A DNA stretch of 11,238 bases, taken from the IMG/VR virus record IMGVR_UViG_2802429224_000011; one strand, given 5' to 3'. Each line of letters opens with the position of its first letter. Within the stretch, counting starts at the first letter, position 1. The position numbers were made by a program, and so were the translations under genes. The notes beneath the pieces are model-generated. The model was not told where the DNA came from. It searched no databases and saw only the letters and a program-made list of their open reading frames with translations. Of this stretch, positions 1 to 11,238 are shown in pieces. Origin of the DNA: a virus (taxonomy: Duplodnaviria; Heunggongvirae; Uroviricota; Caudoviricetes).

Positions 1-513
1 ATGTTTAAACTCAATAAATTGACTATTTCTTTATTAGCTATTTTTGCTCTAAGTGGATGTCAATCCAATGCAGATAATTTTGCAGCTGATGTTTATGACA
101 CCACCCAAGTTAACTCTAAACAAGAAACCAAAATGGTAACTATTGTTTCTGTTCTTCCAGCCAAAATTGCAGTTGACAATAAAGCAAATAAAGAAGCTGC
201 ACAAACATTCGGAGCTGTTGTTGGTGCTGTTACTGGCGGAATTATTGGGCATAACACCAAGAATGGTTCGAAGTTAGCAACTGCTGCTGGCGCCGCAGGA
301 GGAACCGCACTTGGTGCAGCTGCTGGTTCATTAGTCAAAGATAAAACAATTGTTGAAGGCGTTTCTCTAACGTACAAAGAAGGTACAAAAGTTTATACAT
401 CGACTCAAGTTGGTAGAGCTTGCCAATTTGCGCCTGGATTAGCAGCCATGATTTCAACTAAAGAAAACGAAACACGTATTCAACCAAATGCAACATGCCC
501 TGATAATAAATAA
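1..513 (+). CDS. Outer-membrane lipoprotein, glycine-zipper (SlyB/Pcp-like) family
   Basis: N-terminal signal peptide with lipobox LSGC (MFKLNKLTISLLAIFALSGCQSN). Central glycine-zipper tract GAVVGAVTGGIIGH...AAGAAGGTALGAAAGS. Overall layout matches SlyB-like 17-kDa lipoproteins as I remember them. AT-rich codon usage, unlike the rest of the window. Confidence 0.75.
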   Translation: MFKLNKLTISLLAIFALSGCQSNADNFAADVYDTTQVNSKQETKMVTIVSVLPAKIAVDNKANKEAAQTFGAVVGAVTGGIIGHNTKNGSKLATAAGAAGGTALGAAAGSLVKDKTIVEGVSLTYKEGTKVYTSTQVGRACQFAPGLAAMISTKENETRIQPNATCPDNK

Positions 514-525
514 TGGTCATTTCAG

Positions 526-1071
526 ATGACACGTCTTGCTTTATATATACTATTAGCTTTGCCGTGCCTAAGCACTTTTTACGTTAACGCGTCTTCTTTA
601 CAGGAACAATTAGCGGCTATTGCGCGAGCCGAAAATGAAGGTAAAGCCGAAGAAAAACGTATTGAAGATGCACGTAAAGAACAAGAGCGCCAACGTGCCA
701 ATGCGGAAAGGATTCGCAAAGAGAAAGCAGCGGCTATGGCAGCAGCAAAAGAAAAACAACGACGAGCGGCTGAGTTTGAGCGTAAAGCTAAGCTCGAAGC
801 AGAGATGGCGGCAGATAAAAAACGCGATCAAGATTATGAAGATCAATTACGCCAACTTGAACTAGAAAACCGAAAACTCGAGCTCGAAGCTAAAAGGGCC
901 AGAGTAAATAGAGCAAACGATTTTCTGGACCAAGAACTCAAGGAGCGAGCTGCACAAACTGACGTTATTCAATCAGAAGCGGACGCTCGGCGTAATATTT
1001 CAACTGGTACCAAAGAATTGTTGCAAAGTGAGGGAAAAGCGAGAGAGAGTAAAGCTGATAGCTGGTGGTAA
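526..1071 (+). CDS. Secreted or periplasmic coiled-coil protein, unknown function
   Basis: 181-aa ORF starting 13 bp after the lipoprotein stop. Sec-type signal peptide (MTRLALYILLALPCLSTFYVNA|SS) followed by highly charged K/E/R/A-rich heptad-like sequence. No strong Shine-Dalgarno seen, so the start is uncertain. AT-rich like the preceding gene. Confidence 0.55.
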   Translation: MTRLALYILLALPCLSTFYVNASSLQEQLAAIARAENEGKAEEKRIEDARKEQERQRANAERIRKEKAAAMAAAKEKQRRAAEFERKAKLEAEMAADKKRDQDYEDQLRQLELENRKLELEAKRARVNRANDFLDQELKERAAQTDVIQSEADARRNISTGTKELLQSEGKARESKADSWW

Positions 1072-1077
1072 TAATAT

Positions 1078-1099
1078 AGTGAGGGGTGCTCCCCTCACT
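1078..1099. terminator. Perfect palindromic hairpin between convergent genes, candidate bidirectional terminator
   Basis: AGTGAGGGG-TGCT-CCCCTCACT: 9-bp perfect stem, 4-nt loop. Lies 7 nt after the plus-strand gene stop (1069-1071) and about 40 nt after the minus-strand operon's last stop (1140-1142). A/U-rich flank on the minus-strand side (ACUAUAUUAUUA). Confidence 0.5.
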
Positions 1100-1139
1100 A
1101 CCGCTATAATATGACAACTTGTTATTTGCATTTTCTGAG

Positions 1140-1718
1140 TTAATTACTGCTAATTGCAATCGCTCTGATTGAGCGTAAATCATCAAGATTATTCAGTTCT
1201 TCCTTCATCTCCCGCTGACGTTGATAAATCTCGTCATTGCGATCGACCTGTGCCTGCGCCATTACTACCGCCAGTTCTTCCAGTTCCGGCATCGACAGTT
1301 TCACCTGTTGATTATTGGCGTCACCCCATGCAAGGGCGGTTCGTGCCGTATCGGATTTCGCCGCCATTACTACCGGATAAAGACGAGCCAGTGAGTCGGA
1401 GCCAGCATTCCAGGTGCGGCCGTTCCATTCGAACGTGAACGGCTGCGCCTCCTGTTCTGTGCGCCACGCCTCGATTTCCATCTTTTTGGCATCTTTTGCC
1501 TCTGCGATAAGTTCGGGCGTGACGGTGAACGGGGCAATTTCACCCCATTTGCCGCTCTGTAACTCTTCCCAGATGCGCTGGCCTGTCGGTGCGGTATCAT
1601 CCTGCATGGCGGTATACAGGACGAATTCCGTTTCACCTTCAAATAACACCTCGCAGTCAACCGCACCATTTTCAAGATAATGCGCGTTTCTGATGCCTTT
1701 TACCGCTCTGATTTTCAT
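1140..1718 (-). CDS. Putative tail fibre chaperone/assembly protein (DUF4376-like), partner of the upstream Stf-type fibre
   Basis: 192-aa ORF starting 13 nt after the tail fibre stop with RBS GGGGAA 7 nt upstream of ATG. Position immediately downstream of a tail fibre is typical for fibre chaperones. Lacks the classical Tfa C-terminal ...W-P motif, so the functional call rests on position and weak resemblance. Confidence 0.55.
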   Translation of the reverse strand: MKIRAVKGIRNAHYLENGAVDCEVLFEGETEFVLYTAMQDDTAPTGQRIWEELQSGKWGEIAPFTVTPELIAEAKDAKKMEIEAWRTEQEAQPFTFEWNGRTWNAGSDSLARLYPVVMAAKSDTARTALAWGDANNQQVKLSMPELEELAVVMAQAQVDRNDEIYQRQREMKEELNNLDDLRSIRAIAISSN

Positions 1719-1731
1719 GTTTTATTCCCCG

Positions 1732-4700
1732 TTACTCGATGCGCACAAACAGGCATGTTAAAGCCCCATTGGTAGCCACGCCGCTGTAACCGGACAGCGC
1801 CATATAACGCCCCGGAAAACTGTAGCTGCCTGCACCATAAACTGTAAGTTGTGCTGAATAGGTGTATGAGCCCGTCTCACTGAACATGGATGCGATACGA
1901 ACCGGCCCCAGACGGGACCCCGGCACCACGTCGCCCAGACCAATTTTTATGGACGTATCACCCGTCTCAGTTCCCTGATATGCCGCCAGTATTGGCACAC
2001 CAACCGCCGGATATTTGTAATATGAGCCTGAGCCCGCCATCCTGGACAACAGGTACGCCAGTGAATCTCCGTCGTAGACAACTACCCGCGATGACATGTT
2101 CCAGCTGTTATCGCTGTCGTTGTACCGGTACTGCATATAGTGAATACAGTGTTCACCCTGATAATACTGGTTGTAACACATCAGGGTTTTAAATTTGCGG
2201 ACTGTGTCAGATTCACTGTTGGCGTACGGGGACCACATCACGTCAATAATGCCGTTAAATTGCGTGGTACCGGTAAGCAGTTGTGATGAATCTGTAATAC
2301 TGACCGCATACCGCCCCGGCGTGACTTTCTTCAGCCATTCAACGAAATCAGACAGTCCCTCAAACGCCAGGGCTTCAGTGCTGGCAAATGCCTGACCAAA
2401 TCCATGCATACCGGACAGCGCCAGCCTGCCCGGTGTACGGTCGCGGATATCGCTCTGGGGTTCCATCGTCGCAGCCGCTTTCAGCTCAAGCTCCGTGCGC
2501 ATGGCTTCAGGTGTGTCCAGTGCCAGTAATGCGCGGGCTTTTTCTGACAGCTGCGCCAGTAAAATCCGGCCCTCTTCACTGAAATAAGGCAGTGTGTTTT
2601 CTTCCGGTGTTATCTGGCTGACAGCCGTTAACACGCCATTAAGCGGCTGTTTACCTGCCAGTGCATTAGTGACCGTTGTCGCAAAGTTCGGGTCATTACC
2701 CAGCGCCGCTGCCAGCTCGTTCAGCGTGTCCAGGGCTTCAGGTGATGAGTCAACCAGCGCAGCGAGCAGTTTGCGGACAAACGCCGCATTGGCTATTTCA
2801 TTACCTGCTGCATCATCCGGTGGTGTTGGCGTGGACGGTGTTCCGGTCAGTGCCGGGCTTTTCAGTGGCGCACGGGTTTCAATCAGCGCCCTGAGTGAGG
2901 CCTCATCAACCTTCAGGTTTTCCCAGCCAACCAGATAACCACCATCTGATGACACCGCGCAACGGTTATAATAAATATGACCATTAACACCGTAATAAAT
3001 AATTATCTTATAGGCATTCTCATCATTCGGGCTGGTTTTAGGTTGTGGCCAGATAATTTCAATAACACCGTTTGTCTGTATGCCAGGCACCACCACATTT
3101 GTGTCCGCAAATACGGCATAACGACCGGGTTTTGCTGTTTTTACCCAGCGGAGAAAATCAGTTCCTGATTTAAATTCTTTTCTGTCGCTGCTGGAAAACA
3201 GGCTCCCGAAGCCGAACATACCAGGAATCGCCAGTCGGCCTTCGGTGCGGTCGTAAATATTCTCCTGTGCATCCTTCTGTGCTGCATTGCCAAGTTGTGG
3301 CGTCAGATTCGTCCAGGTGACCGGGGCGGTGATATTATCGCCACGAACGGTCATAAGAATCCGTCCGTCTTTTCCAAAAAACAGAACCAGCTTTGTTGCT
3401 GTCTGGCTGGTTTTGTCGCCCCAGCCATTATCCAGCCAGATAATTTCTGTTATCCCGGTTGTTTCTTCCGTTTGTGTGGAAAAGGTGTAATACCGTCCCG
3501 GATGTACGTTGTGCGCAGTTTTGGCTATGGTCACCATATCGCGGGCAATAATTGTCGTGCCTCCGGGATTCGTCATTCCGTAACCAAATGCACCAGGCAG
3601 CGCAACACGACCTTCCGTGCTGTCGTAAAGGTCTGTCTGTATGTCCCTTACCGCTGCGCTTTTCAGCTCAAGCTCATTACGCATGGCTTCCACTGTGGCC
3701 TGTGCCAGCAGTGACCGGGCTTTTTCTGACAGCGGAGACAGTGAAGCATTCCCGTCCTGATTAAAGCACAGAAGATTATCCGCCCGTTCTTCCAGATTAC
3801 TGATTGCGGTTAACACGTCACTGAGTGGTTGTTTACCCGCCAGCGCGTTCATGATTGTTGTCGCAAACTCCGGGTCATTGCCCAGCGCAGCTGCCAGCTC
3901 ATTCAGCGTGTCCAGGGCTTCCGGGGACGAGTCAACCAGTGCAGCGAGCAGTTTGCGGACAAATGCCGCGTTCGCTGTTTCCAGACCGGCAGCATCGTCC
4001 GGTGGGGTTGGTGTGGTGGGCGTGCCGGTGAATGCCGGGCTGTCCAGCGGCGCTTTTGTTTTCGTCTCGTCCATGACGGTTTTGACGGCCTTCGGTGTGG
4101 CTGCCAGTTCTTCGCTGTCGTTATCCGTATCACTACAGAGTTGCACCAGGCCTTTTTCTGTCGTGGAAGCATTGCTTCCCTTCAACTCATCAACTATCCG
4201 TTGCGCCTCGTCCCTGTGCTGTTTTGCGCCCTGCTCGCTTTTTGCTGCCGCTTCTGCACTGGCCTTTGCCTCGCCGCTCAGCGTTGCGACTTCACCGAGT
4301 TTATCAACAGCCTTATCGACGATTTTGTCTGCGTCCTTAACGGCCTGCTCTGCGCGAGCCGCATCCTGTGTGGCAGATGATGCCAGCTGTGCCACCTGCC
4401 TTTTATCTTCAGCAACGGCCTCGGCGTTCTGCTGTACGTTATCCGCCAGCGTCTCGCAGTCGCTCTTGATTTGTTGCGCATCAGCGACATGTTGCCCGGC
4501 CTGTCGTTCGCTTTCCGCTGCCGCCTCCGCGCTCTGCTGCGCCTGCGCCACCAGTTCTTCGAACCGCTTAACGACATCCGGTTTTAAATCGCCTTCATCG
4601 AGGGCGGTCAGAAAGTCGTTCAGTGTGCCGGGCTTTGAATCGTCGTAAACCGAAATATCACCAACACAATATTCTCTTTCAATACATGACCGAAGATAAA

Positions 4701-4878
4701 CGTCATATCTTCCGGTCTGAGCCTCAAATGCATATTCTCCTGCCGGCCCCGTCAAAACTGTTGCCACCGTTCTCATAACCACTGCGGATGTATTCTGTCG
4801 GGCTTTCAGAATAATATGGTATCCGGACATGGGGAGTCCCGTGCCATCCGTCAGCACCCCCGAAATTAATACAGACAT
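1732..4878 (-). CDS. Side tail fibre protein, lambdoid Stf-type, with duplicated collar repeats and three tip modules
   Basis: N-terminus MSVLISGVLTDGTG...ILKARQNTSAVV...YDDSKPGTLNDFL matches the N-terminal domain of E. coli prophage Stf proteins such as StfR. A/E/Q-rich helical shaft. Two copies of the fibre collar motif KGLVQL...ATPKAVK / APLxSPAxTGTP(T/S)TPTPP...AALVDSSPEALDTLNELAAALGNDP(E/N)FATT. RBS AGGAA 6 nt upstream of ATG, 24 nt after the D stop. Confidence 0.9.
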   Translation of the reverse strand: MSVLISGVLTDGTGLPMSGYHIILKARQNTSAVVMRTVATVLTGPAGEYAFEAQTGRYDVYLRSCIEREYCVGDISVYDDSKPGTLNDFLTALDEGDLKPDVVKRFEELVAQAQQSAEAAAESERQAGQHVADAQQIKSDCETLADNVQQNAEAVAEDKRQVAQLASSATQDAARAEQAVKDADKIVDKAVDKLGEVATLSGEAKASAEAAAKSEQGAKQHRDEAQRIVDELKGSNASTTEKGLVQLCSDTDNDSEELAATPKAVKTVMDETKTKAPLDSPAFTGTPTTPTPPDDAAGLETANAAFVRKLLAALVDSSPEALDTLNELAAALGNDPEFATTIMNALAGKQPLSDVLTAISNLEERADNLLCFNQDGNASLSPLSEKARSLLAQATVEAMRNELELKSAAVRDIQTDLYDSTEGRVALPGAFGYGMTNPGGTTIIARDMVTIAKTAHNVHPGRYYTFSTQTEETTGITEIIWLDNGWGDKTSQTATKLVLFFGKDGRILMTVRGDNITAPVTWTNLTPQLGNAAQKDAQENIYDRTEGRLAIPGMFGFGSLFSSSDRKEFKSGTDFLRWVKTAKPGRYAVFADTNVVVPGIQTNGVIEIIWPQPKTSPNDENAYKIIIYYGVNGHIYYNRCAVSSDGGYLVGWENLKVDEASLRALIETRAPLKSPALTGTPSTPTPPDDAAGNEIANAAFVRKLLAALVDSSPEALDTLNELAAALGNDPNFATTVTNALAGKQPLNGVLTAVSQITPEENTLPYFSEEGRILLAQLSEKARALLALDTPEAMRTELELKAAATMEPQSDIRDRTPGRLALSGMHGFGQAFASTEALAFEGLSDFVEWLKKVTPGRYAVSITDSSQLLTGTTQFNGIIDVMWSPYANSESDTVRKFKTLMCYNQYYQGEHCIHYMQYRYNDSDNSWNMSSRVVVYDGDSLAYLLSRMAGSGSYYKYPAVGVPILAAYQGTETGDTSIKIGLGDVVPGSRLGPVRIASMFSETGSYTYSAQLTVYGAGSYSFPGRYMALSGYSGVATNGALTCLFVRIE
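2677..2871. repeat. Intragenic direct repeat copy 2 (collar-encoding) within the tail fibre gene
   Basis: About 195 bp, roughly 85-90% identical to 3859-4053 (offset 1182 bp), with perfect runs such as gcagcgagcagtttgcggacaaa and ttcagcgtgtccagggcttc. Also visible as near-identical antisense ORF translations (GSLPSAAASSFSVSRASGDESTSAASSLRTNAA in ORFs 2594..2938 and 3851..4648). Weaker similarity continues to about 2400. Confidence 0.85.
3859..4053. repeat. Intragenic direct repeat copy 1 (collar-encoding) within the tail fibre gene
   Basis: Partner of 2677-2871. Weaker similarity (about 75-80%) continues to about 3590, covering the ELELK...DRTxGR(L/V)A motif. Confidence 0.85.
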
Positions 4879-4902
4879 GTTTATTTCCTGATTCAGAAAA
4901 CA

Positions 4903-5991
4903 TTAACCAAAATAATTGACGCCTTTTTTCTTGCCACTGGCTTTCCCCTTTGCAGAAATATCCGTGGTCAGTGACAGATTCAGCGTAAATCCCTGTCCCG
5001 GTACCAGTGAAAACTCCACAGACTCAGCCTGCCAGTGATGGTCCTCACGCACACCAAATCCCTGCGTGACAAAACGCATCTCCGCCCCTGCTTTCAGCAG
5101 TTCCGGCCTGCAGGGCAACGTTATCGTCATCTGGCGTCCGGCTTTCTGCACACGTTTAACCTTCGACTCTGCACAGTGTTTTGCGGTGCCCTGGTCAGGC
5201 TGGGTAAACGGATGCCGCTTATCTGTTGACTCCACGTCAACTTTAACTTCACGTGTGCGTCCGTCACGAGCATCAAAATACCGGACCCCAACTTTCCCGC
5301 TCTTTTTATCCCCCTTCGCACCACCCGCAGCGCCCTGTCGCTCACCTTCACGATAATCCCAGTCTGATACCATACCCGGCGTAATGGTTATCTCGGGCGC
5401 ATTTCTGCCCCCCGTACTCTGTGATGCCCCGTATTCCAGAAATAACCAGTAGCCATTGGTCGGTTTACTGGTGGCGCCGTACATACCTGCAATGCGGGAT
5501 AAGAGGGCAGCATCAGATTCTGATGACTGCATCACCCACGGGATATGAATATCAGCAAGCACCGATGAGACGCGCGCCACCAGATTATTTTCAGTGGCGA
5601 TGGTTTTCACCAGGTCGCCCAGTGTAATATCGCTGAAAGCCCGGGTTTTCAGTGCGGTCACGTCTGCGCCATGTTTTGACGCATTCATGGGGGCTGCGGT
5701 GGCATAAATGGTGATTCGGCGGGGAGGACCTCCACTTGCCACCTGACAGACGGTAAAACTGCCTTTATTTACCAGGTTTCCGTTGAATCCCAGCCCCAGC
5801 GTTAATACCGCGCCTTTTGGTGGCAGCGCCATCGTCTCACTGAACAGGGTTATCATCAGTTCATCGGAGCGCTTTGTGGCAGCACCATTATCGGTATATC
5901 GCAGCTCAGCCAGCCCCCGCTTTATGGCCTTCGTGATATCCTCACCCTCTGCTGTCAGGCTGAAATCCGGCTGATACTCATTCAGTCCCAT
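4903..5991 (-). CDS. P2 gpD-like tail protein (late control gene D family)
   Basis: 362 aa with the gpD-family motif ...QSSESDAALLSRIAGMYGA.... Position directly after X in a FI-FII-E-T-U-X-D order. RBS AAGGAG upstream. Start overlaps the X stop. Confidence 0.88.
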   Translation of the reverse strand: MGLNEYQPDFSLTAEGEDITKAIKRGLAELRYTDNGAATKRSDELMITLFSETMALPPKGAVLTLGLGFNGNLVNKGSFTVCQVASGGPPRRITIYATAAPMNASKHGADVTALKTRAFSDITLGDLVKTIATENNLVARVSSVLADIHIPWVMQSSESDAALLSRIAGMYGATSKPTNGYWLFLEYGASQSTGGRNAPEITITPGMVSDWDYREGERQGAAGGAKGDKKSGKVGVRYFDARDGRTREVKVDVESTDKRHPFTQPDQGTAKHCAESKVKRVQKAGRQMTITLPCRPELLKAGAEMRFVTQGFGVREDHHWQAESVEFSLVPGQGFTLNLSLTTDISAKGKASGKKKGVNYFG

Positions 5992-6200
5992 AACTGAAAC
6001 GTCTCCTTCACTTCCGGTTCATATACCCAGTCCGGCAACACGATTTCCACTCCCGCCGGATAGACCGGACCAAGGTCAGCCAGTCCGGGATTGGCTTCCA
6101 GTACCGCCGCCAGTGACTGGTTAAGCCCGGTACTGCCATAGTGTCTCTGGCAGATGTCATCCAGCATATCGCCGTCAGTAGTCCGCCAGTTTTTCGCCAT
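5982..6200 (-). CDS. P2 gpX-like tail protein X (LysM-like small tail protein)
   Basis: 72 aa. GDMLDDICQRHYG...LEANPGLADLG...GVEIVLPD matches the gpX pattern (GDTLDAICxRYYG...ANPGLA). Overlaps U by 26 nt and D by 10 nt. Confidence 0.85.
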   Translation of the reverse strand: MAKNWRTTDGDMLDDICQRHYGSTGLNQSLAAVLEANPGLADLGPVYPAGVEIVLPDWVYEPEVKETFQLWD

Positions 6201-6663
6201 AGTATTTCAGCTCCAGTGTGAACGTTTTGTTCTTCGGCGCACCGCCGGGAAGAAAGGACGTGGTGTTATCTGAATAGGCAGTTGCCACGAAATACCCCAT
6301 CACATCACCTGTGCTCGAGACCAGAAGATGCGGGGCCGGATTGTCATCCACCATCTGAACCAGTGTATCAAGAGCGTCCATTCCCACACCGTCACGAAAT
6401 CCTGCATGCGCCATACCTTCAAGGGTTATTGTTCTGGCCCCCTTGCCGGTATACTGCAGCAGGTCGTTTTTTCCGATAAGCTGTTGTTCATCCCATCGCC
6501 ATTCCATCGTGCGCTTCATGGCGTTATAAGCAGCAGTATCAATACTGAATTCAAACTCACCAAACGACAGCATGACGCGAGAGGCGACATCCGTTAATGA
6601 TCCCACCGCGTCCCATGCTTCACGCTCAAGCCGGTTTACGCCCCAGCCCAGCAAATCCACCAT
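6175..6663 (-). CDS. P2 gpU-like tail protein
   Basis: gpU-family layout (F.F..D......EWRW...G......TGKGxxTITLEG...FLPGGxPK..TF.L.L). Start called at ATG 6661-6663 (protein MVDLLGWG...), preceded by GGGGG 7 nt upstream inside the T 3' end. The ORF track's 6669 start is an upstream GTG. Confidence 0.82.
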   Translation of the reverse strand: MVDLLGWGVNRLEREAWDAVGSLTDVASRVMLSFGEFEFSIDTAAYNAMKRTMEWRWDEQQLIGKNDLLQYTGKGARTITLEGMAHAGFRDGVGMDALDTLVQMVDDNPAPHLLVSSTGDVMGYFVATAYSDNTTSFLPGGAPKNKTFTLELKYYGEKLADY

Positions 6664-6665
6664 AT

Positions 6666-8318
6666 TCACCCCCAGAATGCATCACCATCAGTCATGCGGG
6701 AACGCTGACCAAAATTAATATCTCCCAGATTTTTCGTTACCCTGTCTGCCAGTTGTCCGGCATCCTCGCCGGGCTTCTGAGTGATGTTAAATTCCGCCCG
6801 TATCTGATACGTGGGTTTTACTTCCACCTGGCTGACACTGCCGGGGGTATACTGAAGAGCCGAGAGAGGATCCGAATTACCCTGCCCCTGAACTGCTGCA
6901 GGTAGTCCGTCAATATAGGTGCGGGATTTCTCTTTTATCGCCTTAAAATCAGGTTCTTCTTTCGGCCCCAGCAGAGGGTCGAGAAATGCATCAAACTTTT
7001 TATCGTCATGATTCCAGGGGAGATAACCGCGGGTGTCTTTATAGGCCTGTACAACCTGTTTTGTCAGGTCAGGATTTTGCCTGAGCAGTTCATCAAACCA
7101 TTCACCCTGACCGTTTTTCTGCGCCACTGCTCTCGCCAGCTCCGGCGACCCCATTTTTGCCAGATACTCCAGCACTTCCCGTCGGTCCTCTCGCGGATCA
7201 TCCGCCAGCCCCCACTCAATGGCTTTTTGTGTAATTCCGGCAAGAACTTTTCCAAATTTCCACATCCAGGCAGCCATGTCGATCAGCGCCGGCAGGGCAT
7301 CATCACGAATAAATGCCCGGATTTTTTCCAGCCCACCATTCTTAAACCAGGCCGCAAGGTCATCCGTCACCTGTTGAATATGTGGGGCAAGTTCATTACC
7401 CAGCTGTCCGCTGATTTCATCAATGGAAGAACTCAGAACATTACGGAGATTTGACAGTGCCACATGTCCCTGAACTGCGCCATCAGCCCCTGCCTTTGTC
7501 ACCAGGTTATAGCGTTTCTGCTCACTGATAAGCTCCCGATAAGTTTTCCCTGACAGACGCATCCAGGTCAGAATTTTATTGGCCTCACCACCGAACAACG
7601 CATCTGCCATCCCCGCCGCCTGCTGCTCATTCTCAACCTGCAGTAAGCGATCAAACAAAAATTCGACCTGCTCCTGGTTGTTTTTTCCGGCCATTACGCC
7701 CGCTTTCAGCCCCAGTTTACCGAATACCTCCTGAATGGCTCCTTTGTCCGTGGCACCATTATCATCGTCAAAAACCTTGTTCCGGTATTCCTCAAACAGA
7801 TCACCGATGTTTTCACCGTTTAACCCCATCTGACGGCCCAGTGAATCCCACGCCGCATAGGTTTCATAGTCCACCCCGTAGCTCCGCGCTATCCCTGCAC
7901 GCTCTGCTGTTTCCGAATTCCGGTTCAGTACCGCACTTGCACCTGCTGCCAGCGTAAGCCCGGAACCAACCGAAAGCCCCAGCCCGGTCTTAAGAACGGT
8001 CCCGGCCCACCCTTTCCAGCGAGCCAGACGTTCCGCGCGCGCCAGCTTACGGTTGAATTTGTCCTGCTCTCCGGTGGCATCATGAATTTTTTTACCCAGC
8101 TTTTCATACTGCTTTCGCAGATCAGTAATATTCTGTCCAGCCAGAACGCCAGCCTGAATTTTTCGTTTCAGTACGTCCTGCTGGCGTGTCAGACGAGCCA
8201 CTTCCTGTGTTGCCCCTGATAATCCGTGCTTCAACCCATCAACCGATTTTTTCCACGACGGATCTATCGTGCCTCCGATCCGGATATTCGCTTTAAGGTT
8301 ATCGCCCACCGTTGCCAT
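6666..8318 (-). CDS. Tail tape measure protein (gpT-like), short variant
   Basis: 550-aa protein in the position between E/E' and U. Internal Gly-rich hydrophobic segment (GWAGTVLKTGLGLSVGSGLTLAAGASAVL) typical of tape measure proteins. RBS GAGGAA 8 nt upstream of ATG. Confidence 0.82.
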   Translation of the reverse strand: MATVGDNLKANIRIGGTIDPSWKKSVDGLKHGLSGATQEVARLTRQQDVLKRKIQAGVLAGQNITDLRKQYEKLGKKIHDATGEQDKFNRKLARAERLARWKGWAGTVLKTGLGLSVGSGLTLAAGASAVLNRNSETAERAGIARSYGVDYETYAAWDSLGRQMGLNGENIGDLFEEYRNKVFDDDNGATDKGAIQEVFGKLGLKAGVMAGKNNQEQVEFLFDRLLQVENEQQAAGMADALFGGEANKILTWMRLSGKTYRELISEQKRYNLVTKAGADGAVQGHVALSNLRNVLSSSIDEISGQLGNELAPHIQQVTDDLAAWFKNGGLEKIRAFIRDDALPALIDMAAWMWKFGKVLAGITQKAIEWGLADDPREDRREVLEYLAKMGSPELARAVAQKNGQGEWFDELLRQNPDLTKQVVQAYKDTRGYLPWNHDDKKFDAFLDPLLGPKEEPDFKAIKEKSRTYIDGLPAAVQGQGNSDPLSALQYTPGSVSQVEVKPTYQIRAEFNITQKPGEDAGQLADRVTKNLGDINFGQRSRMTDGDAFWG

Positions 8319-8738
8319 AACATCGCTTCCTCTCTTCCGACTCCGCCAGCATCATTGCCACAAAATCCGTATACGGCAGCGCCATCACATCTCCGGGAGA
8401 CCACCCGAACCAGGCACCGGCACGCCGTATCGCTGTCAGGATGCTTTCTTCTTCCGCCGGACCGGCGGCAGCAAAAAAACATTAAACTGACGCTCCAGGG
8501 CCAGGTAATCACACGCTTCCATGTTCATCATGTCTGCCGCGTCCATCCCACACAGACCGGCAATCATATCCAGATCAGCCTCTGCTTCCGGTTTGTTACT
8601 CCGGCGATGCAACAGACGATCGCGGACAGTGGGCGCACGCATAGTGACGTGCGTGATCGTCTGTCCTGATGCGGTGACATACGGCACGGATAACACAATT
8701 TCCACGCTGCTGGCAGGAACACTGTTTTTTTCCGACAT
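8299..8738 (-). CDS. Predicted E+E' fusion product made by programmed -1 frameshift
   Basis: A -1 slip at TTTTTTG (minus strand, 8472-8478) opens a frame reading AAAGPAEEESILTAIRRAGAWFGWSPGDVMALPYTDFVAMMLAESEERKRCYGNGGR and stopping at TAA 8299-8301, just inside the T start. This mirrors the known P2 E/E' arrangement. Coordinates derived by hand translation. Confidence 0.6.
8436..8738 (-). CDS. P2 gpE-like tail assembly chaperone
   Basis: Motifs ...TASGQTITHVTMRAPTVRD...LDMIAGLCGMDAADMMNMEACDYLALERQ consistent with the gpE family. Start called at the second ATG (8736-8738, MSEKNSV...) because AGGAG lies 6 nt upstream of it. The ORF track's 8744 start is the alternative. Contains the TTTTTTG slippery site near its 3' end. 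Confidence 0.85.
   Translation of the reverse strand: MSEKNSVPASSVEIVLSVPYVTASGQTITHVTMRAPTVRDRLLHRRSNKPEAEADLDMIAGLCGMDAADMMNMEACDYLALERQFNVFLLPPVRRKKKAS
8472..8478 (-). other. Slippery heptamer TTTTTTG (programmed -1 ribosomal frameshift site)
   Basis: mRNA reads AAT GTT TTT TTG CTG CCG in the E frame. T-TTT-TTG is the heptamer used for the E/E' frameshift in P2-like phages. Confidence 0.6.
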
Positions 8739-8761
8739 AAGCATCTCCTTTAAAAAGAAAA

Positions 8762-8777
8762 GGCGGCCTGAGCCGCC
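8762..8777 (-). terminator. Intrinsic terminator/attenuator-like hairpin between tube and E
   Basis: On the minus strand: GGCGGC-TCAG-GCCGCC followed by UUUUCUUUUUAAA, located between the tube stop (8798-8800) and the E RBS. Confidence 0.5.
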
Positions 8778-8797
8778 TGAATGACAGGATCCCCGGA

Positions 8798-9316
8798 TTA
8801 AACCCGGATGATTTTTTTCAGATCCGCCAGAACATTAACGCCGTTAATACGACGCACAAATTCCTCCGGAATAATGCAGATGGTTTCCACACCGTCAACA
8901 GCCTGACGGTAATAACTCAGTGACATTTCCACCGTCACCGAAGCCTCTGCCTGTGACGTTGCGGGACGCGCATCCGGCGTGATACTGGTGATCATCCCCT
9001 GCAGAGTTTCCACCTGCCCGCTGGTCGCATTCCCCACCTGGTAAGCCTGGCGGACAACAATCTCCGGCGAATAAAGCCCGGCCTGTAATCCCAGCAGCGT
9101 AAGCATGGCAACATCATAACCATAAATCTTAAACGAACAGGTCAGCGCTTCCATGCCGTCATCCACTGCCACCGGTGCATCCATTGCGCCAGTTTTGATA
9201 TCCACTGTCGTGATATTAATGGCAGGTGGCGTGTATTCATGTGCCCCCTGAAGGCGGATCCCGCCAGGAAGAAATAACGCCCATGCGCGCAACAGTTTTT
9301 TTTCACCCGTAATCAT
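8798..9316 (-). CDS. P2 gpFII-like tail tube protein
   Basis: 172 aa, the same length as P2 FII as I recall it. C-terminal ...NGVNVLADLKKIIRV resembles the FII-family ending (NGVD.LAQHRRNIGL). Start overlaps the sheath stop by ATGA. Position directly after the sheath. Confidence 0.85.
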   Translation of the reverse strand: MITGEKKLLRAWALFLPGGIRLQGAHEYTPPAINITTVDIKTGAMDAPVAVDDGMEALTCSFKIYGYDVAMLTLLGLQAGLYSPEIVVRQAYQVGNATSGQVETLQGMITSITPDARPATSQAEASVTVEMSLSYYRQAVDGVETICIIPEEFVRRINGVNVLADLKKIIRV

Positions 9317-10788
9317 ACCGTCAGTTCCTCCAGCGCCAGTTTATTGTTAATCATTGCCCGCAGTGTCAGGCGCTCCAGTGGTGACTTCGGCCCAAAGTCA
9401 TAATCGATATACAACTGCCCTGCCGCCAGGGTTTCTGCAGTGTTCAGTTCATCGTTCAGCCATGCACTGCCACCGTGGATCGCGCCCAGATTTTTAAGCT
9501 GACGCATATAGGCATTAATGCTGCCAAGAATGTCGTCTGCCACATCCCGATCAAGCGGGCGATCGACATAAGGCAGCATGGCCTCCTGGATGCTGTCCTC
9601 AATCACATCTGCAGTGCGGCGTACCGGCTCAAAACGCCACTGACTGTGGGATGTGCACAGACGGTTACCCCAGTGTTTAAAACCGTCATGGCGAATAATG
9701 GTGGAGATATTTTCCATGTTCAGCAGGTTTGCCGTGCAGTTCTGCTCCCCGAGAATAAACGTATCCACCTGCTCCAGACCGGTGATATTCATCACGTCCT
9801 GGTTTGATTTGGACCACCACCACCCTTTTTCGTAATCAATACGGGCACGCAGCCCGGCAGCACGAGCCGAATATGGACGAAATATAGTTTGCCCGCTGTC
9901 ATCCGTCACTGACACGCGCGGACGCAGCAGCTCCACACGCCCACCAAATGACGCGCGCCGCTGAACCACATCCTGCGGCGTTGCCATTGAAGGCGAGTCA
10001 ATATAGGCCACAGCCCGCAGCTTCACGGCATACGTTTCCAGCGCCTTTGCCACGCCATCATCCTCACTGTACCCCGTGGCAATGAGGATGCGCGGTTGAT
10101 AGCCTGTCACGCCCTTACTTTCTGTCAGCGCCTCCATGGCCTGAATCACCGCCGCACGCTGTTCGGCCTCTTTCGTCTTTGTTTTACTTTCTGCGCGCAC
10201 CACAATCACCAGCGCACCAGTCTGGTCAAAAATATCTCGCAGGGCCGGGTATAATGTTCCGGCTGTGCCCAGTTTCCCTGCCTGAGTAATGGCCCCTGCC
10301 ACCACCACTGGTGTATTGACCGGGAACGCCTCATCTTCTCCGCCGGATAACGTCAGGCTGAACGGCAACACCACTTTATTTTCAGCGTCTCCTGCATTCA
10401 GGGTGCTGACAGCCGCCGTCACAGGCGAATCCCCCAGCGCATTCACCACTTCAGTCACACGGTCCGCCGTGGCGTTAACCTGGCTGTGTTCGTCCGTCCC
10501 CAGTGTTATCGTCAGGGTCGTACCTTTCAGCGAGGCCACTGTCTGCGCGTTTTGTTCTGTGGCAGCCACAGCAACAACCGAAATCTTATTACCGGCCCGA
10601 CCTTCCTGTTTCGCCGTGAAATCCAGCGCCGTTCCCAGCAGCCAGGAGCCGGCTGTGCCGGAAGCGCACACACCACCAGAGGCGTCCGGCGCTGTCCCCA
10701 CCAGGCCAATCACTGCCGTGGAGATGGTCTGCACGGCAACCGTGCCTGTCGTCAGTTCAATGGTTTCAACACCATGTAATCCGGGCAT
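9313..10788 (-). CDS. P2 gpFI-like contractile tail sheath protein, with an extra internal segment
   Basis: N-terminus MPGLHGVETIELTTGTVAVQTISTAVIGLVGTAPDASGG and C-terminus ...ETLAAGQLYIDYDFGPKSPLERLTLRAMINNKL closely mirror P2 FI termini ([34 protein letters not shown]; ...ETLKAGKLYIDYDYTP...LENLTLRQRI). Also ...ILIATGY... and WGNRLCTS motifs. RBS GGGAG upstream. Confidence 0.9.
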   Translation of the reverse strand: MPGLHGVETIELTTGTVAVQTISTAVIGLVGTAPDASGGVCASGTAGSWLLGTALDFTAKQEGRAGNKISVVAVAATEQNAQTVASLKGTTLTITLGTDEHSQVNATADRVTEVVNALGDSPVTAAVSTLNAGDAENKVVLPFSLTLSGGEDEAFPVNTPVVVAGAITQAGKLGTAGTLYPALRDIFDQTGALVIVVRAESKTKTKEAEQRAAVIQAMEALTESKGVTGYQPRILIATGYSEDDGVAKALETYAVKLRAVAYIDSPSMATPQDVVQRRASFGGRVELLRPRVSVTDDSGQTIFRPYSARAAGLRARIDYEKGWWWSKSNQDVMNITGLEQVDTFILGEQNCTANLLNMENISTIIRHDGFKHWGNRLCTSHSQWRFEPVRRTADVIEDSIQEAMLPYVDRPLDRDVADDILGSINAYMRQLKNLGAIHGGSAWLNDELNTAETLAAGQLYIDYDFGPKSPLERLTLRAMINNKLALEELTV

Positions 10789-10801
10789 ACATTTCTCCCA
10801 T

Positions 10802-10823
10802 AAAAAAACCGCCCTCAGGCGGT
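10802..10823 (-). terminator. Intrinsic terminator between the G-like gene and the sheath gene
   Basis: Minus-strand mRNA: ACCGCC-UGAG-GGCGGU followed by UUUUUUU, then GGGAGAAAUGU-AUG (sheath RBS and start). Confidence 0.55.
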
Positions 10824-10842
10824 CAGATGATTAACTTCTTTT

Positions 10843-11238
10843 TCAGGTATTTTGTGGCTGCTCAGGCCAGCTAATATTGTTGTAAGTGGTCTTATCCGTA
10901 ATAGCGCTGAAATCCATCGCCTGCAGCGATTTCGCGTAAATGCGGTACGCTTTGAGCTTTTCCCTGTCTTCGTCGCTGATTAAACCCAGCAGCAGGTCTT
11001 TTTCCCATTCGCTGGTCATGATACTGACCTGTTTTAACAGTGCGTCACGCTCATCTTCCGCTTTAAGTTTGTAGTCGAAAACAAATTCATCATTGCGGTA
11101 GAACCAGTATCCCGACGCCTCAATGCGACGATTAGCGGTAATATCCGGCAACTCAATCACACTTTTATTTTCCGGGCAGATTGAGGTGATGTCTTTTCCA
11201 ACCCAGACCACTTCGCCAGTTTCAACATAAATAACTTT
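10843..11238 (-). CDS. P2 gpG-like tail fibre assembly protein, 5' end lies beyond the window
   Basis: Reading frame stays open to the window edge (..KVIYVETGEVVWVGKDI..). VIELPDITANRRIEASGYWFYRNDEFV resembles P2 G ([27 protein letters not shown]). C-terminal KAYRIY...D.S......ISWPEQP matches the Tfa-family ending (KYRV.L.RVD.S.....WP..P). Confidence 0.8.
   Translation of the reverse strand, partial: KVIYVETGEVVWVGKDITSICPENKSVIELPDITANRRIEASGYWFYRNDEFVFDYKLKAEDERDALLKQVSIMTSEWEKDLLLGLISDEDREKLKAYRIYAKSLQAMDFSAITDKTTYNNISWPEQPQNT

Follow-up and report, generated by a model that had tools for sequence, protein, structure and literature searches.

The stretch of DNA analysed here (hereafter the window) comprises 11,238 nucleotides (nt) of the virus record IMGVR_UViG_2802429224_000011 (Caudoviricetes) and opens with two AT-rich plus-strand genes, encoding a YfgH-like lipoprotein and a YfgI-like protein of family DUF5384, which face a minus-strand operon of tail genes with a higher guanine-plus-cytosine (GC) content (Table 1). 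We interpret the compositional step between them as a joint between two modules of a single prophage, the tail genes on one side and a horizontally acquired two-gene cargo (the cassette) on the other, and not as the edge of the prophage; we assign a probability of roughly 75% to this reading, in which the cargo would be expressed from its own leader and add a dose of an envelope-hardening pair. On this view the right-hand module (53% GC) is a late operon, and the temperate phage to which it belongs combines a lambda-like head with a P2-like contractile tail and carries a further, distal fibre together with its DUF4376 chaperone; the left-hand module is a two-gene moron (~39% GC with its leader), lodged at a place of variable gene content past the last tail gene and before the attachment arm. 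As such the element is a further example of a moron in a prophage cargo slot and the compositional finding is ordinary, though it shows that a GC step and a hairpin can pass for a prophage edge while really marking an internal cargo joint.

The GC content is 41.6% over positions 1-1139 vs 53.0% over 1140-11238, and the left block lies ~7 standard deviations below the 1100-bp windows to the right of the step (50.3-57.5%, mean 53.3, standard deviation 1.6). At third codon positions (GC3) the two left-hand open reading frames (ORFs) have values of 0.20 (ORF 1-513) and 0.31 (ORF 526-1071) as compared with 0.52-0.63 for every tail gene, and because these positions are synonymous the shift indicates a difference in mutational history rather than in amino-acid content. 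Sliding-window GC and GC3 therefore bear out the step described in an initial annotation of this DNA, together with the AT-richness of the first gene and the higher GC of the tail genes, but not its figures: the first gene, put at 25-40%, has 38.8% GC overall with 100-bp windows spanning 29-50%, the DUF5384 gene has 44.5%, and the tail genes come to 53% rather than ~55%. The step had also been placed at ~1100, whereas the maximum-likelihood change point falls at 1208-1238, ~100 bp further right and within the 3' end of the chaperone gene. That this 3' end is itself AT-shifted was correctly noted, the final 111 nt having 40.5% GC and the remainder of the gene 53.8%. A weaker shift is found in the same gene of cassette-free loci (44% GC in L002, 48% in L003), and the AT shift of the chaperone 3' end is thus partly intrinsic. 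The two transcription units are convergent as described, with the plus-strand stop at 1071, the minus-strand stop at 1140 and a hairpin at their meeting point in the 68-nt gap. By segment, GC is 51.1% in the host flank, 23.9% in the leader, 38.8% in the cassette and 53.2% in the tail genes, so that the cassette is AT-rich relative to host and phage alike.

The host flank was located through an exact-protein look-up of the DUF5384 protein, which returned many Escherichia contigs, among them one (L008; GCA_002965365.1, PTST01000003.1) that contains the window from L008:9476 to the contig end at 100% identity over 11,071 bases compared. Left of the window this contig carries aspS, yecD (~88% identical to K-12) and the first ~100 bp of yecE, and homology to ~5,300 complete E. 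coli genomes ends at L008:9074-9080, ~395 bp left of window position 1. A different prophage, likewise integrated at yecE but with a ykgJ fragment in place of the cassette, has the next ~170 bp (to L008:9249) in common with this one, and the stretch reads as an attachment-site (att)-proximal arm. Next comes a 226-bp leader up to the lipoprotein start codon; the left edge of the cassette is set only by the end of homology to the other yecE prophage at L008:9249. A DUF5384 protein identical to that of the window adjoins this tail module elsewhere in the chromosome too, at trpA-yciGFE-truncated ompW, where an ORF6N gene lies between the att site and the pair, and by source name the exact cargo proteins occur in 'unclassified Escherichia', E. 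marmotae and E. coli. The first of two possibilities raised in the initial annotation, that at ~1.1 kb the mobile element gives way to host DNA, which would make the two AT-rich genes chromosomal, could draw on the coincidence of GC step, convergent genes and hairpin near that position and on the fact that homologs of the pair are core chromosomal genes of E. coli, but we dismiss it because aspS-yecD-yecE 5' end synteny already stops at L008:~9080, the pair recurs with the same tail module at ompW, the core E. coli genes sit at the guaA locus with only 66%/53.5% identity, and the pair lies 10 GC points under the host flank as well.

The second possibility, that AT-rich cargo sits at the far end of the tail operon, is supported by what close relatives carry in this region. 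The gpD-tape-measure segment (4903-8318) is present in 74 of 5426 complete E. coli genomes at 93-99% identity, only one of which (52F4) has the pair at the megablast level. In relatives with 97-99% identity (L100, L101, L102) the slot between chaperone and att is empty or filled by other genes; it is empty in CEA224S at a tRNA-Ser site, holds DinI-like, 'ferredoxin' and alpha/beta-hydrolase genes in 16F5M1D1 at the prfC site, and holds ash and Rha in STEC316 at the ompW site. The cargo unit has moreover left a footprint. In all five ompW-site loci a 76-bp remnant of a chaperone 3' end stands upstream of the cassette (L001:19671-19746, and 9145-9220 in L006, L007, L009 and L015), between the terminator hairpin of the ORF6N gene and the cassette leader, and is 84-85.5% identical to window positions 1143-1218. 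The remnant encodes ...ELNNLDDLRSIREMTISGNHAR*, a C-terminus of the type found in L003 and L102, ompW phages that lack the cassette, and the ompW-site ancestor thus resembled L102. No such remnant was found upstream of the pair in yecE-site loci, the window included. Homology of the window to cassette-free relatives begins at 1143 or 1165, and the remnant breakpoint (window ~1218) matches the GC change point. As read from these alignments, the remnants show that in the ompW lineage the cassette entered by recombination together with a replacement chaperone 3' end, one crossover lying ~76 bp before the old stop codon. The recombination joints are thus at 1143-1218, inside the chaperone gene, and not at the hairpin that had been taken as the boundary. 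Between the yecE- and ompW-site cassettes (window vs L001/L015) the synonymous divergence (dS) is 0.45 for the lipoprotein gene and 0.07 for the DUF5384 gene, a mosaic pattern which implies that recombination has produced another breakpoint, located either inside one of these genes or between them.

Morons are defined as extra DNA relative to related phages, with deviant GC and with their own promoter and terminator (PMC3594210). The cassette is present or absent among relatives at one and the same map position and differs in GC from its neighbours, and on these grounds it fits the definition; sigma-70-like matches occur in its leader at L008:9371-9407, outside the window. In common with HK97 gene 15, lambda bor and lom, and Cor of HK022/N15/phi80, it would add one more transcription unit to an otherwise conserved series of late genes, with GC unlike its neighbours, its own leader and hairpin and variable presence among close relatives, and it likewise encodes envelope proteins and is located beside tail genes. 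It is unlike these morons in that its cargo is no orphan phage gene but a copy of an operon of two genes that is widespread on chromosomes, and in that its promoter and terminator are putative, the hairpin lacking a U tract on the plus strand.

The core genes yfgH-yfgI lie between yfgG and guaA in 5422 of 5426 complete E. coli genomes. When one genome per species was scanned with a DUF5384 profile, 80 loci emerged, from Enterobacterales, Pseudomonas, Aeromonadales, Pasteurellaceae, Nitrosomonas, Rhodospirillales and others, and in 79 of these a lipoprotein homolog is found immediately upstream on the same strand, the exception being cut by a contig end. The two genes of the window are separated by 12 nt. 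The K-12 pair (srgI-srgL in S. Typhi), which has been treated as an operon (PMC11619404), resembles the cassette in gene order, spacing, Pfam families, the combination of a predicted lipoprotein with an exported helical partner, and the possession of a hairpin at a downstream convergent junction. Unlike it, the cassette encodes proteins only 66%/53.5% identical to those of K-12, has a GC3 of 0.20/0.31 vs 0.43/0.49, and occupies a prophage cargo slot rather than the guaA locus, with a different leader and terminator. Ratios of nonsynonymous to synonymous substitution (dN/dS) are 0.10-0.12 for the lipoprotein gene and <=0.03 for the DUF5384 gene. By homology, the cassette and the core operon yfgH-yfgI are paralogs that have diverged, the cassette being maintained under purifying selection, and the low-GC copy of the window is, in terms of the same comparison, one variant of a widespread two-gene module. 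Two further candidates were rejected. The K-12 genes yfjS/yfjT of prophage CP4-57 have no BLASTP similarity to the pair. Phage TL-2011b (L005, NC_019445.1, 1-3534) is not an independent phage copy, since the last ~3.5 kb of the record are 99.2% identical to K-12 pdeF-yfgG-yfgH-yfgI and represent host flank; this 'complete genome' record thus includes chromosomal DNA, the prophage lying between yfgI and guaA, and its yfgHI are not phage genes.

The lipoprotein has a lipobox (LSGC) with Cys20, a glycine-zipper two-transmembrane hairpin and a C-terminal beta domain. The lipobox is followed by Gln, with no Asp at position +2, and both Cys20 (across 24 homologs) and the zipper glycines G71, G75, G79, G101 and G105 are invariant. 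The match to PF05433 is 27.4 bits vs a curated cut-off of 24.2, a 24-sequence lipoprotein profile aligns with SlyB (7OJF) over its full length (residues 10-161, E 4.4e-9), and in a fold search with Foldseek SlyB was the only significant PDB match (E 5e-7, probability 1.00). With SlyB (PDB 7OJF/7OJG) the protein shares the lipobox, an N-terminal strand, the glycine-zipper hairpin and the C-terminal beta domain, but it is only ~24% identical and belongs to the YfgH branch, and YfgH is reported to be genetically distinct from SlyB, the suppressors being clsA vs Mla (10.64898/2025.12.22.696046). Sequence identity is 66% to K-12 YfgH and 72% to P7 Upf50.5, and the two highest-scoring named homologs outside Escherichia are from Salmonella (84%) and Xenorhabdus (73%). 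Membership of the TraT family was rejected, as PF05818 scores 24.5 bits vs a cut-off of 31 and the fold match to the TraT decamer has an E of 0.04-0.4. The label 'DNA methyltransferase' (PHROG 1277) was rejected also, being contradicted by all domain, profile and fold evidence; it recurs in the RefSeq records of SJ46, RCS47 and TL-2011b and in P7 upf50.5 (L004:3446-3967) and is a propagated misannotation.

The DUF5384 protein scores 145 bits against PF17358 (cut-off 25) and has a signal peptide with a hydrophobic N-terminus ending VNA|SS. Its sequence consists of a variable Lys/Glu/Ala-rich N-terminal half and a conserved C-terminal half with an aromatic C-terminus (WW or WF, the window protein ending WW), and its AlphaFold model (predicted local distance difference test score, pLDDT, 85) is one continuous helix over residues 2-180. 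From this model a helix of ~160-180 residues (protein residues 24-181) would measure an estimated ~24-27 nm if extended, comparable to the width of the periplasm. Identity is 53.5% to K-12 YfgI and 71% to P7 Upf50.0, and named homologs include proteins of Salmonella (84%) and Xenorhabdus (58%). In the library searched, the term 'DUF5384' occurs in no paper, and an NCBIfam search gave nothing usable. Mutants in yfgI are reported to be sensitive to DNA damage, and the S. Typhi orthologs of yfgHI are regulated by SdiA (PMC11619404), neither of which explains a mechanism for the pair.

YfgH is reported to localise to the outer membrane and to keep outer-membrane proteins stable during stress; its deletion causes sensitivity to sodium dodecyl sulfate/ethylenediaminetetraacetic acid and loss of outer-membrane proteins, leaky extra expression rescues knock-downs of outer-membrane biogenesis, and a YfgH ring has been put forward as an AlphaFold3 proposal only (10.64898/2025.12.22.696046). 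We suggest that the cassette is transcribed independently from its AT-rich leader in lysogens. The lipoprotein would then reach the outer membrane and, by analogy, may encircle outer-membrane proteins and patches of lipid in glycine-zipper rings like those of SlyB/YfgH, with the DUF5384 partner probably acting alongside it as an exported long-helix protein, and the extra phage-supplied dose would harden the outer membrane of the lysogen. That an added phage copy hardens the lysogen envelope in this way is plausible by analogy with the core genes, although we rate it slightly below even odds. YfgH has only recently been characterised as a SlyB-like outer-membrane stabiliser and for YfgI little is known beyond the reported DNA-damage sensitivity of mutants; phage-borne copies under strong purifying selection, one of them in the sim slot described below, offer a natural gain-of-function handle on the role of YfgH-YfgI and allow ring-forming lipoproteins to be tested as phage-encoded exclusion or fitness factors.

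The principal alternative for function is superinfection exclusion, in which phage-made SlyB-like rings would sequester or mask outer-membrane protein receptors or block a post-adsorption step, to the disadvantage of competing phages and possibly of colicins or conjugation. Part of the case for it comes from the P7-type phage-plasmids. The pair is carried by P7, SJ46, RCS47, JL22 and phi456 and by ~200 plasmids in PLSDB, of which 173 are predicted to be non-mobilizable and most, among the records listed, are ~90-150 kb. As far as the Oc4 operator, and once more beyond LPsit, the sequences of P1 and P7 agree at 96.5-98.5% identity, and between these clean homology breaks P1 has simA-simB-simC (33.6% GC) where P7 has a leader and the pair (42.6% GC), a clean cassette swap (P7 L004:3163-4538 vs P1 L103:863-2375). 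The sim genes constitute the 'superimmunity' locus of P1 and are dispensable for its lytic growth. The simABC region is associated with low GC and lies in one of eight hypervariable regions of P1-like phage-plasmids (PMC9603915). Of the phage-borne relatives in the collection of phages searched, the P7 pair (upf50.5/upf50.0, with those of SJ46, RCS47, JL22 and phi456) is the nearest, at 72%/71% identity, and is likewise a replaceable cassette beside tail genes with low GC3 (0.24/0.31), but it resides in another phage backbone, in a slot between immI and LPsit that is co-directional with the tail-tube operon, and has no hairpin, running directly into the late promoter LPsit. The likeness to simABC is one of slot only, in that simABC fills in P1 the replaceable low-GC position that the pair fills in P7; the window prophage is unrelated to P1 and no sequence relationship is claimed.

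Exclusion would also suit the position of the cassette next to receptor-binding fibre genes, the reported binding of YfgH to OmpF/C/A and BamA (10.64898/2025.12.22.696046) and the frequency of exclusion functions among known morons (PMC3594210), and TraT offers a parallel as a ring-forming outer-membrane lipoprotein on a mobile element with weak sequence and fold resemblance to the window protein (24.5 bits; E 0.04). Against it, neither cargo protein has a PADLOC match, the TraT score is under the curated cut-off, a slot shared with an exclusion locus is circumstantial evidence, and in 80 species this pair is an operon of the core genome or chromosome, homologs of the window tail proteins having been detected within 8 kb of none of the 80 DUF5384 loci, which suggests a housekeeping role in the envelope. 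We consider exclusion unlikely, though far from negligible. A broader conjecture, which we hold to be a little less likely again, is that at least two unrelated families of temperate phages (prophages with lambda-like heads and P2-like tails, and P7-type phage-plasmids) have captured YfgH-YfgI from the host as two-component outer-membrane 'armour' or as an exclusion device, whereby the rings would enclose outer-membrane protein receptors and be connected with the periplasm through the DUF5384 helix of ~25 nm, and the lysogen would be protected from superinfecting phages or membrane-damaging agents in a manner analogous to P1 Sim.

Returning to the interpretation of the step as an internal joint with an autonomously expressed cargo, a number of results weigh against it in part. 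The source contig stops at the right end of the window, so that the second prophage end, with the integrase and the att core repeat, would lie beyond it, and no att repeat was found within the window. Promoter-like matches in the leader number 8 vs 4.3 +/- 2.3 in shuffled sequences, which is not clearly above expectation; the leaders of the yecE- and ompW-site versions barely align, and no reliable homology was detected in an alignment of yecE-site, ompW-site and P7 leaders. The lipoprotein model has a pLDDT of only 61, and the suggested function of the pair is extrapolated from a 66%-identical paralog in one preprint. The core yfgH/I genes have a GC3 of 0.43/0.49 vs 0.60 for their neighbour guaA, and low GC may thus be partly a family trait. 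For the hairpin, the sequence following the stem on the plus strand is CCGCUAUA, without a U tract, a consensus terminator scan of the window called it on neither strand, and the stem never varies, hence giving zero covariation support and leaving conservation as the only support.

The GC3 values of the core genes lend themselves to the view that low GC is an intrinsic or selected property of the family, as for AT-rich envelope genes silenced by H-NS, and not a mark of recent transfer; in the 80-locus sample, too, the pair is >3 GC points below its flanks at 21 loci and above them at 9. Across these species, however, the GC of the pair follows that of the local genome (0.33-0.68), with a mean difference of only -0.013, the GC3 of the window copy is far under that of the resident core copy, and the presence/absence polymorphism and the 76-bp footprint represent an actual insertion. 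We consider this explanation improbable. The low GC3 instead implies that the cassette was not derived from the resident Escherichia copy, and its source was presumably a lower-GC enterobacterial or phage gene pool.

The hairpin is the same element that was initially described as a 9-bp stem at 1078-1099, an outer T-A pair having been missed so that the stem is in fact 10 bp long. It begins 6 nt past the DUF5384 stop codon, inside the convergent gap, and is the sole perfect 10-bp hairpin of the window, for which simulation gives an expectation of 0.063 per window and ~4e-4 per 68-nt gap. A 61-nt segment around it has a folding energy of -23 to -24 kcal/mol (z = -3.6 and -4.5), and the minus-strand sequence after the stem is UAUUAUUA. 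Among loci with the cassette (11 distinct ones and the window) the stem does not vary, except that L015 is one base short beside the loop, and the loop in these loci is TGCT or CGCC. The hairpin was not found in aligned cassette-free relatives, two of which (L003 and L102) have another hairpin, CCCCGG-N6-CCGGGG, at the same convergent position, and at the K-12 yfgI/guaA junction stands yet another hairpin, a bidirectional terminator of the classic type. A search of the whole window against Rfam gave no match. We infer that the hairpin is a terminator-like insulator, separating the cassette from the convergent late operon, which probably acts mainly by terminating minus-strand late transcripts before they read through, and which may also cap or stabilise the plus-strand cassette mRNA. 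A chance palindrome, or a recombination or att-type site with no role in transcription, would be compatible with its place at a module junction, the missing plus-strand U tract and the negative terminator scan, but is very improbable in view of the chance expectation for this gap, the homology breakpoints at 1143-1218 away from the hairpin, the distinct GC-rich hairpins in the same position at the other convergent junctions, L003 (also L102) and K-12 yfgI/guaA, and the UAUUAUUA that follows on the minus strand.

The remainder of the window is occupied by tail genes (Table 1). In E. coli 52F4 the contractile tail module is annotated as such, with lambda-like head genes further on. No close relative of the module was found among deposited phages; only chaperone genes match, with 80-89% identity to those of phiP27, Rac-SA53, SerU-LTIIb and an Actinobacillus phage.

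Table 1. Features of the window and the evidence for each; aa, amino acids.
Feature	Position	Strand	Evidence or detail
yfgH-like gene for a predicted outer-membrane lipoprotein, 170 aa	1..513	+	Pfam PF05433; SlyB profile and fold matches
yfgI-like DUF5384 gene, 181 aa	526..1071	+	Pfam PF17358
Hairpin, perfect 10-bp stem, 4-nt loop	1077-1100		Arms 1077-1086 and 1091-1100: TAGTGAGGGG TGCT CCCCTCACTA
DUF4376 tail-fibre assembly/chaperone gene, 192 aa, last of late tail operon	1140..1718	-	Pfam PF14301 4e-16; PHROG 1141 tail fibre protein
AT-shifted chaperone 3' segment, recombination joint of cargo unit	1143..1218	-	76-bp remnant copies; homology breaks
Distal (second) tail fibre gene, 1048 aa	1732..4878	-	Pfam phage_tail_N 1.7e-54; Phage_fiber_2
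P2-type contractile tail module	4903..11211	-	Pfam and PHROG matches
gpD	4903-5991	-	
gpX	5982-6200	-	
gpU	6175-6669	-	
Tape measure	6666-8318	-	
gpE-like	8436-8744	-	
Tube	8798-9316	-	
Sheath	9313-10788	-	
Caudo_TAP fibre chaperone, 3' part	10843-11211	-	

The prophage has two fibre/chaperone sets, a P2-type tail-collar fibre with the Caudo_TAP chaperone upstream of the sheath gene, and a distal 'prophage tail fibre N-terminal' fibre with the DUF4376 chaperone after gpD. The distal set is found also on Mu-like tails (L002) and in Stx2e phages (L003). The distal fibre gene contains an internal direct repeat of ~390 bp (2479-2871 vs 3661-4053, ~76% identity), and in related loci it is very variable in length or split, with products of 537-1048 aa. 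A 14-nt imperfect inverted repeat (86% complementary) at 1412-1425/1437-1450, inside the chaperone gene, is probably due to chance. Two observations concern the yecE site more generally. On the host side, nhaB-dsbB stands directly beside ruvB within L008:1-3500 and in L014, as set against L010-L013; other yecE-site hosts and E. coli Z1324SEC0014 (L098) have znuB (or znuA-C-B) in place of nhaB-dsbB, so that upstream of the prophage either the host DNA has been rearranged or the lineages differ. Another yecE prophage has in its tail region a 2.7-kb gene (L098:10459-13161) that carries the label 'sulfur carrier protein ThiS', which is almost certainly a misannotation.

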